Shown: in pieces, positions 1,573-1,631 of the stretch
Layout of the letters: the number at the start of each line of letters is the position of its first letter
How positions within the stretch are numbered: position 1 is the stretch's first letter
Assembly (NCBI RefSeq): GCF_003334315.1
Contig: NZ_QOWR01000105.1
From: Escherichia coli
GTDB taxonomy: Bacteria > Pseudomonadota > Gammaproteobacteria > Enterobacterales > Enterobacteriaceae
DNA: 3,201 bases
Reading direction: 5' to 3' (one strand)
Made by a program: the position numbers and the translations under genes
The notes under the pieces: model-generated
Told to the model about the DNA's origin: nothing
What the model saw: the letters and a program-made list of their open reading frames with translations, nothing else
The model's database searches: none

Positions 1573-1596
1573 AATCGTTTCCTTGTCGCATCATTT

Positions 1597-1614
1597 GGCC
1601 TCACCCGCGAGGCC
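1597..1614 (-). promoter_or_regulatory. Intercistronic GC-rich hairpin between xapA and xapB (candidate partial terminator or mRNA stability element)
   Basis: Plus strand GGCCTC-acccgc-GAGGCC, a perfect 6-bp stem with 6-nt loop, inside the 59-bp xapA-xapB spacer. On the operon (minus) strand it is not followed by a U-tract, so it is not a canonical intrinsic terminator. Confidence 0.3.
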
Positions 1615-1631
1615 GTTTCTTATTGTTTTTC

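Follow-up and report, generated by a model that had tools for sequence, protein, structure and literature searches.

A conserved mRNA hairpin in the spacer between xapA and xapB of Escherichia coli and other enteric bacteria

The two cistrons of the Escherichia coli xapAB operon are separated by a spacer that folds into a short, G+C-rich hairpin, a previously undescribed structure of the xapAB mRNA that belongs to a known intercistronic class. The hairpin was analysed in a 3,201-nt stretch of E. coli DNA (hereafter the window) and compared with the xapA-xapB junctions of other bacteria. Its pattern of variation indicates that the structure has been kept by evolution in many enteric bacteria and is not due to chance. 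As regards its role, we see about an even chance, arguing by analogy with described operons, that it is a 3'-end or decay-barrier element, possibly derived from a terminator, that would let the levels of xapA and xapB mRNA differ. Overall, it resembles mRNA stability elements or leaky terminators of the ordinary intercistronic kind. The features of the locus are collected in Table 1.

Table 1. Coordinates of the xapA-xapB junction and its surroundings in the window
Feature	Position	Strand	Details	Basis
xapA (xanthosine phosphorylase) CDS	1632..2465	(-)	stop codon TGA 1632-1634	ORF list, NCBIfam, E. coli annotation
A-rich single-stranded tract GAAAAACAAUAAGAAAC	1615..1631	(-)	from stop codon to hairpin	sequence; unpaired in predicted fold
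Hairpin	1597..1614	(-)	5' arm GGCCUC 1614->1609, loop GCGGGU 1608->1603, 3' arm GAGGCC 1602->1597	
12-nt linker AAAUGAUGCGAC	1585..1596	(-)	3' of hairpin; 2 U in first 8 nt	
xapB Shine-Dalgarno AAGGA	1580..1584	(-)	7 nt before ATG, 12 nt after hairpin	
xapB (xanthosine/H+ symporter)	320..1572	(-)	start codon 1570-1572	ORF list, K-12 alignment
Terminator-like hairpin with U-tail (GCGGCUCUGCUCUUCAGAGCUGC UUUUAUGAUA)	289..311	(-)	3' of xapB	terminator scan

An earlier note on this DNA, made from the sequence alone, had described a 59-nt xapA-xapB spacer at 1573-1631, and the ORF list agrees with it, both genes being read from the minus strand. The XapA product scores 541.9 bits against the NCBIfam XAPA equivalog (cutoff 370.9), and the XapB protein of K-12 matches the nucleoside permease family with 754 bits. 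E. coli chromosomes match the region with 99.8-100% identity and carry the two genes under the names xapA and xapB, and the spacer sequence is identical to that of K-12. In the window, the loss of 4 bp near position 676 (ATAG is absent relative to K-12) shifts the frame of xapB and breaks it into ORFs 631-1572 and 320-649, so that it is a pseudogene. Thus a ratio-setting role of the spacer, if there is any, no longer applies to this copy. The terminator-like hairpin 3' of xapB is probably the end of the operon transcript.

The ends of the window, about 1-205 and about 2752-3201, we take to be IS1, from the IS1 sequence and from the annotation of similar E. coli regions, and between the two copies a substitution at 1477 is the sole further difference from K-12. 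The copies have the same orientation, with the IRL-side end at about 178-205 and the IRR-side end from about 2752, and the xapBA segment is located between these direct copies. The right copy contains an insB-like ORF (2764-3141, minus strand); the left copy takes the place of the K-12 sequence from within the DUF1427 gene onward. Identical IS1/xap junctions were found in none of the complete E. coli genomes of the collection, which gave pieced-together matches only; this hints at a source resembling Shigella. A 50-kb E. coli sequence labelled as a plasmid (NZ_CP098226.1) carries the entire chromosomal gltX-tRNA-xapR-xapB-xapA-yfeN region with nearly all genes frameshifted, and looks like a low-quality or misassigned contig, not a mobilised xap locus.

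Transcribed with the operon, the spacer has the RNA sequence GAAAAACAAUAAGAAAC-GGCCUC-GCGGGU-GAGGCC-AAAUGAUGCGACAAGGAAACGAUU. The perfect 6-bp hairpin that had been placed at 1597-1614 is indeed found in the sequence (ggcctc 1597-1602, acccgc 1603-1608, gaggcc 1609-1614), and the RNA fold prediction suggested at that time as a check returns it as both the minimum free energy (MFE) and the centroid structure of the spacer (ViennaRNA). The hairpin begins 17 nt past the xapA stop codon. Its stem of 6 bp, five of them G-C, closes a 6-nt loop with a predicted energy of -12.1 kcal/mol on either strand, and all six pairs have a probability of at least 0.95 with 50-400 nt of flank on each side (contexts of up to 859 nt). 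As a decay barrier would require, a stable structure directly 3' of xapA is predicted to form in the mRNA context.

After the hairpin, the RNA continues as AAAUGAUGCGAC-AAGGA-AACGAUU, followed by the AUG, and the xapB Shine-Dalgarno is not sequestered by the spacer hairpin. In a 259-nt context the same AAGGA is predicted to be paired with a UCCUU within the codons for Ser and Phe in the conserved SFLQ motif of early xapB (1530-1584, minus strand), with an unpaired probability of about 0-0.1; this thermodynamic prediction is independent of the spacer hairpin. An out-of-frame AUGAUG just 3' of the hairpin, for which GAGG of the 3' arm is a possible Shine-Dalgarno, was considered as a small ORF and rejected, the AUG being missing from E. 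albertii and from the SCPM-type allele of E. coli.

Judged from a single sequence, the hairpin is only moderately unlikely to have arisen by chance, and it is the comparative data that make the case. The z-scores of the spacer fold on the two strands are -1.84 (9 of 200 shuffles as good) and -2.06 (6 of 200). Among 5000 dinucleotide-preserving shuffles, 1.2% give a spacer with a perfect Watson-Crick stem of at least 6 bp and a loop of 3-8 nt, a share that falls to 0.46% when at least five G-C pairs are demanded.

A scan for XapA in one genome per species identified 80 loci, in 61 of which xapB follows xapA. At 36 of the 61 junctions, in more than 10 genera, a hairpin is found in the same place with varying stem sequences, for instance GGCCUC/GAGGCC, GACCCCG-CUUG-CGGGGUC, GUGGCCC-GCCA-GGGCCAC, AAGGCUCC/GGAGCCUU and ACCGCUCCG/CGGGGCGGU. 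These 36 hairpin-bearing loci have spacers of 50-75 nt (median z-score -2.31) and come from Escherichia, Pseudocitrobacter, Klebsiella, Citrobacter, Enterobacter, Silvania, Phytobacter, Huaxiibacter, Lelliottia, Atlantibacter, and Chimaeribacter. Spacers of 28-43 nt, found at 14 loci in Buttiauxella, Cedecea, and their relatives, are unstructured (median z-score +1.0), and those of 98-153 nt, at 11 loci in Yersinia, Budvicia, Limnobaculum, and Pragia, contain other, larger structures. The comparison with the Buttiauxella/Cedecea group suggests that the hairpin is dispensable. Where present, it starts 9-25 nt past the xapA stop codon and ends mostly 20-27 nt ahead of the xapB ATG, with extremes of 18 and 32 nt. 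The AAGGA motif is nearly invariant across the alignment of the 36 junctions, and the hairpin is degraded in two of them, K. indica and Escherichia sp. MOD1.

The 36 mid-length junctions were aligned with MAFFT, which is blind to structure, and a 10-pair helix was named explicitly. In this helix 77.5% of the cells are paired; displacing the 3' arm by one to three columns lowers the figure to 35-53%. Both sides have changed in nine of the ten aligned pairs, and the 37 doubly changed cells were reached by none of 500 column shuffles. RNAalifold applied to the MAFFT alignment recovered only four of the named pairs because of register noise in the alignment, all four with compensatory changes. At a closer distance, the stem is kept in four alleles of E. 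coli, which differ mostly in the loop: 6 bp in K-12, 7 bp in the CUVET16 allele, which has A-U in place of a potential G.U pair, 8 bp and a TGA loop in the ST95 allele, and 8 bp with one internal U.G in the SA186 allele.

Other structures were observed at the junctions with shorter and longer spacers. In the Buttiauxella group, perfect hairpins are located within the early xapB ORF, +98 to +234 nt after the xapA stop (e.g., CCCUCGGAUUCCGAGGG at +137-154), and such hairpins are mostly absent from the few hairpin-bearing loci scanned; they may represent a relocated protective structure, or chance. The Yersinia/Budvicia spacers of 135-153 nt (L060, L062, L065, L066, L070, L071, and L076) contain a long variable hairpin past the xapA stop and, 3' of it, a conserved block GAAGAGGGAAGU.CCCUACA ... 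AUUCCCUCGAC ... CACGGAGAAUAAAA with a GAGGGAA/UUCCCUC inverted repeat, a candidate for an additional regulatory element or for an internal xapB promoter. In the Limnobaculum/Pragia spacers of 98-116 nt (L020, L028, and L036), the sequence AAGGAGACAGGAAUGUCUG... has a Shine-Dalgarno and an AUG inside a hairpin, and a small ORF may be present between xapA and xapB. The XapA proteins of Limnobaculum/Pragia are 84-87% identical to that of E. coli, seemingly high for Budviciaceae, and horizontal transfer may be responsible.

Wobble pairs were used to tell which strand folds. A G.U pair on one strand is an A.C mismatch on the other, and the count of internal wobbles is strand-neutral. Internal G.U pairs on the operon strand occur in six different stems (Escherichia MOD1, the SCPM and SA186 types of E. 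coli, Enterobacter ENT03, Phytobacter, and Enterobacter BIGb0383), and the opposite pattern occurs in none (binomial p = 0.016). The presence of G.U pairs on the operon strand alone indicates that the selected fold is that of the sense xapAB mRNA, and not of an antisense RNA or DNA. By the energy of the hairpin alone, the operon strand is more stable in 19 spacers and the antisense strand in four, with 13 equal; by the whole-spacer MFE, the operon strand is more stable in 13 and the antisense strand in 22, but the latter measure is uninformative on the strand because other weak pairings dominate it. The compensatory changes in many genera and the operon-strand G.U pairs both add weight to the opinion of the earlier note that a functional RNA element is more likely here than a full terminator.

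The same data bear on the possibility that the hairpin has no present RNA function, being a palindrome that arose by chance, a remnant of a former xapA terminator that is now neutral, a site bound by a protein on the DNA, or a REP-type repeat. The modest single-sequence z-scores (-1.8 to -2.1) and the lack of the hairpin in some genera would agree with such a reading, and a genomic SELEX study assigned a weak RpoN+NtrC peak (36%) to the xapA/xapB spacer at K-12 coordinate 2,522,072 (PMC8743547). However, the compensatory changes and strand-specific wobbles point to selection on RNA pairing, and the variation of stem sequences between genera speaks against a sequence-specific site on the DNA. 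No sigma-54 promoter was recognised: TGGCAC-N5-TTGCW is unmatched in the spacer at up to three mismatches, and the total for the window is below the shuffle expectation. Rfam 15 has no match overlapping 1573-1631 even at E<=10, and only two chance-level matches elsewhere in the window. A REP/BIME repeat is ruled out, as the spacer is single-copy: a 52-nt spacer query finds a median of one place per E. coli genome (sensitive blastn, E<=10), and 4074 of 5426 E. coli genomes have a single copy of the spacer. Overall, we give the absence of any RNA function only a slim probability.

The stem-loop expected of an intrinsic terminator is present in the window, and the U-tract (about five or more U in 8 nt) is absent on the operon strand. 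The tail AAAUGAUG has two U in 8 nt, in line with what the earlier note had said of a missing U-tract, and the operon strand is not called by the terminator scan, which in the window calls the spacer site on the plus (antisense) strand only, with the tail TTTCTTATTG; this T-rich tail is the A-rich tract read on the other strand. Silent in the earlier note were this antisense terminator-likeness (the A-tract), the U-tails of Citrobacter and Klebsiella, and the frameshift in xapB. Among the 15 nt that precede the hairpin, 8-13 are A in most of the 36 junctions that have it; the A-rich tract is absent from Huaxiibacter, Lelliottia, Chimaeribacter, and Atlantibacter. U-rich downstream tails are found only in the C. 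freundii group (UUACUUUUUU), the K. oxytoca group (UUACUUUAAU), Enterobacter ENT03, and Silvania, where GGGGUCAUUUUUUGCGG follows the hairpin and the tail is U-rich (UUUUUUGCGG) once the stem is shortened. With the exception of Enterobacter ENT03, the Escherichia and Enterobacter alleles have no operon-strand U-tract, and the Enterobacter site is called on the antisense strand only, as in the window. By the same scan, C. youngae and K. michiganensis are terminator-like on both strands, with the U-tract present, and their operon-strand terminator-likeness points to terminator ancestry or a dual role. Across these junctions the hairpin is the constant feature and neither flanking tail is universal; this fits descent from a terminator, with a lasting function that requires the stem-loop alone.

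It seems quite unlikely that the E. coli hairpin is itself a working leaky intrinsic terminator (attenuator) stopping a substantial fraction of polymerases despite its poor U-tract. Such a role would be in agreement with the G+C-rich stem just past the stop codon, with the orthologous sites of C. youngae and K. michiganensis that match the pattern on the operon strand, and with the Silvania sequence 3' of its hairpin, but not with the U-poor tail in the window, which the scan passes over. A rough terminator d-score, calculated after the formula of d'Aubenton-Carafa (1990) and of ranking value only, is -55 for the window versus about +3 for Citrobacter. Moreover, since the U-tract is missing from the Escherichia and Enterobacter alleles other than ENT03, termination does not appear to be the conserved function.

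An antisense terminator, or one half of a bidirectional terminator, that stops polymerases coming from the xapB/xapR side would be compatible with the wide conservation of the A-rich tract on the operon strand and with the antisense calls in the window, Enterobacter, Citrobacter, and Klebsiella. Polymerases reading through from the adjacent val-lys tRNA operon do enter xapR in the antisense direction: among the 3' ends in the supplement of Adams et al. (2021) is one opposite to xapR at K-12 coordinate 2521597 (+), which is consistent with read-through of this operon stopped inside xapR. However, this mapped end is well short of the spacer, and neither a convergent gene nor an antisense promoter is known in the vicinity. 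Each operon-strand G.U is an antisense A.C, so that the six-to-none distribution of wobbles, which includes the common SA186-type E. coli allele, argues against folding of an antisense transcript. In addition, the hairpin is kept in the four genera without the A-tract, and the hairpins of the xapA-like paralogues described below have neither a T- nor an A-tract. We therefore regard an antisense role as very unlikely.

The 3'-barrier or vestigial-terminator role is favoured for three reasons: the terminator geometry is located just past the reach of ribosomes, some of the orthologues have U-tails, and an excess of the enzyme over the permease is the usual stoichiometry. With its short G+C-rich stem and small loop, the structure has the geometry of a terminator hairpin and would lie beyond melting by ribosomes terminating at the stop codon. 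In the mechanism that we infer by analogy, RNA polymerase would mostly continue through the hairpin into xapB; following an endonucleolytic cut further downstream, PNPase and RNase II would digest the RNA in the 3'-to-5' direction and stall at the hairpin; and the remaining translatable xapA-only RNA would outlive the xapB part. The soluble enzyme would then be made in excess over the membrane permease, as with malE and malF. In the U-tailed relatives (the C. freundii and K. oxytoca groups), some true termination probably contributes as well.

As a barrier to PNPase or RNase II, a stem of 6 bp and about -11 to -12 kcal/mol would count among the weaker ones, and the 3'-barrier role leaves the conserved upstream A-rich tract unaccounted for. 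Differential decay within operons has been established for malEFG and many other E. coli operons (Dar and Sorek 2018, PMC5927463). The xapAB operon is not in the differential-decay supplementary tables of that study, and no 3' ends of xapA or xapB are present in the Term-seq and TRS supplements, which come from cultures without xanthosine induction. As xapAB is not expressed unless xanthosine is present, its absence from these data carries little weight in either direction. A literature search, which did not reach the original xap sequence papers, found no description of the xapA-xapB hairpin.

The hairpin could instead serve xapB, either as a papBA-like 5' stem-loop left after an RNase E cut in the A-tract, or by insulating or modulating the ribosome-binding site as a standby site or structural boundary. 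The order of elements (A-rich unpaired tract, hairpin, 12-nt linker, Shine-Dalgarno, and ATG) suits this role, for which the papBA model has been described (PMC5927463), and the near-constant distance to the xapB ribosome-binding site, with the 3' end of the hairpin 20-27 nt before the ATG in most genera, fits a 5'-side permease role equally well as the 3'-barrier role.

Further data relevant to this possibility come from a second operon type, consisting of a xapA-like phosphorylase, a TsgA-like MFS transporter, and a LysR regulator (L061-L084, e.g., L063 2471-5553), which was found in Citrobacter, Kluyvera, Yokenella, Lelliottia, and others. The xapA-like product is about 70% identical to XapA and passes the XAPA equivalog with 450.8 bits. 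At the junction of these operons there is a conserved G+C-rich hairpin (GGCGGGC...GCCCGCC and variants) 12-13 nt past the stop codon, which has no A- or U-tract and directly adjoins the Shine-Dalgarno of the transporter. Outer UCC/GGA or UCCUC/GGAGA pairs are predicted over this Shine-Dalgarno and would occlude it, and according to these models the paralogue hairpin could be a translational-coupling structure. Its adjacency to the next Shine-Dalgarno likewise fits a 5'-side permease role equally well. The presence of a hairpin in both operon types suggests that it belongs to the phosphorylase-permease junction and not to XapB itself, and that the design is a recurring one.

Several observations nevertheless make the 5'-side role of the xapAB hairpin unlikely in our opinion. 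The A-tract of the window, unpaired in the predicted fold, has no RN|WUU motif of RNase E and no UU at all, and the hairpin of the xapAB group does not touch the Shine-Dalgarno. The U-tails of Citrobacter and Klebsiella and the terminator-like geometry point to 3'-end formation. Finally, stabilisation of the permease message over that of the enzyme would, as we see it, produce an unusual stoichiometry.

A more general proposal is that the hairpin and A-tract together form a module setting the phosphorylase-to-permease ratio, whatever the permease family, by a mechanism beyond a passive exonuclease block. Candidate mechanisms may be Hfq/sRNA docking, given (AAN)4-5 beside the hairpin, or a bidirectional insulator halting antisense polymerases. 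We consider this proposal to be very improbable. Repeats of (AAN)n are expected in so A-rich a tract, and therefore no conclusion about Hfq is drawn.

The xapABR system is a small circuit used as a model genetic switch, and the published model of this switch assumes [XapA] = [XapB] (PMC7205307). A ratio other than 1, if true, would alter the parameters of the model, and this matters because XapB is the component creating bistability. If the hairpin uncouples the xapA and xapB mRNAs, it would provide a clean, single-copy, covariation-supported case of post-transcriptional operon stoichiometry. The natural variants form a series in which the shares of termination and decay could be compared: at one end the hairpin plus a U-tail (Citrobacter and Klebsiella), next the bare hairpin (Escherichia and Enterobacter), and at the other end no hairpin (Buttiauxella and Cedecea). 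Apart from the switch model and the variant series, the finding is an ordinary one.

Among known systems, leaky intrinsic terminators of the attenuator type are located inside operons, for example, between rpsU and dnaG. In common with these, the xapAB structure is a G+C-rich hairpin shortly past a stop codon within an operon, and the Citrobacter and Klebsiella orthologues, having a U-rich tail and an upstream A-tract, display the pattern of a bidirectional terminator; the window and the Escherichia/Enterobacter alleles differ in that they have no operon-strand U-tract (the tail of ENT03 is U-rich). With papBA, the xapAB operon shares a single-stranded A-rich segment and, between this segment and the distal cistron, a hairpin. 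In contrast to papBA, the A-tract has no RNase E motif, and the expected stoichiometry, with the enzyme at least equal to the permease, would be reversed. The class represented by malE-malF and the operons of Dar and Sorek (PMC5927463) shares with xapAB a stable hairpin just 3' of the promoter-proximal cistron, a membrane transporter as the distal cistron, the absence of a terminator U-tract, and conservation of the structure among enterobacteria. The structures of Dar and Sorek are mostly inside the downstream ORF, whereas the xapA-xapB hairpin is in the spacer. It is also shorter and weaker (6-8 bp) than the malE-malF element and, whereas the latter is a multi-copy REP sequence, it is single-copy and specific to its locus.
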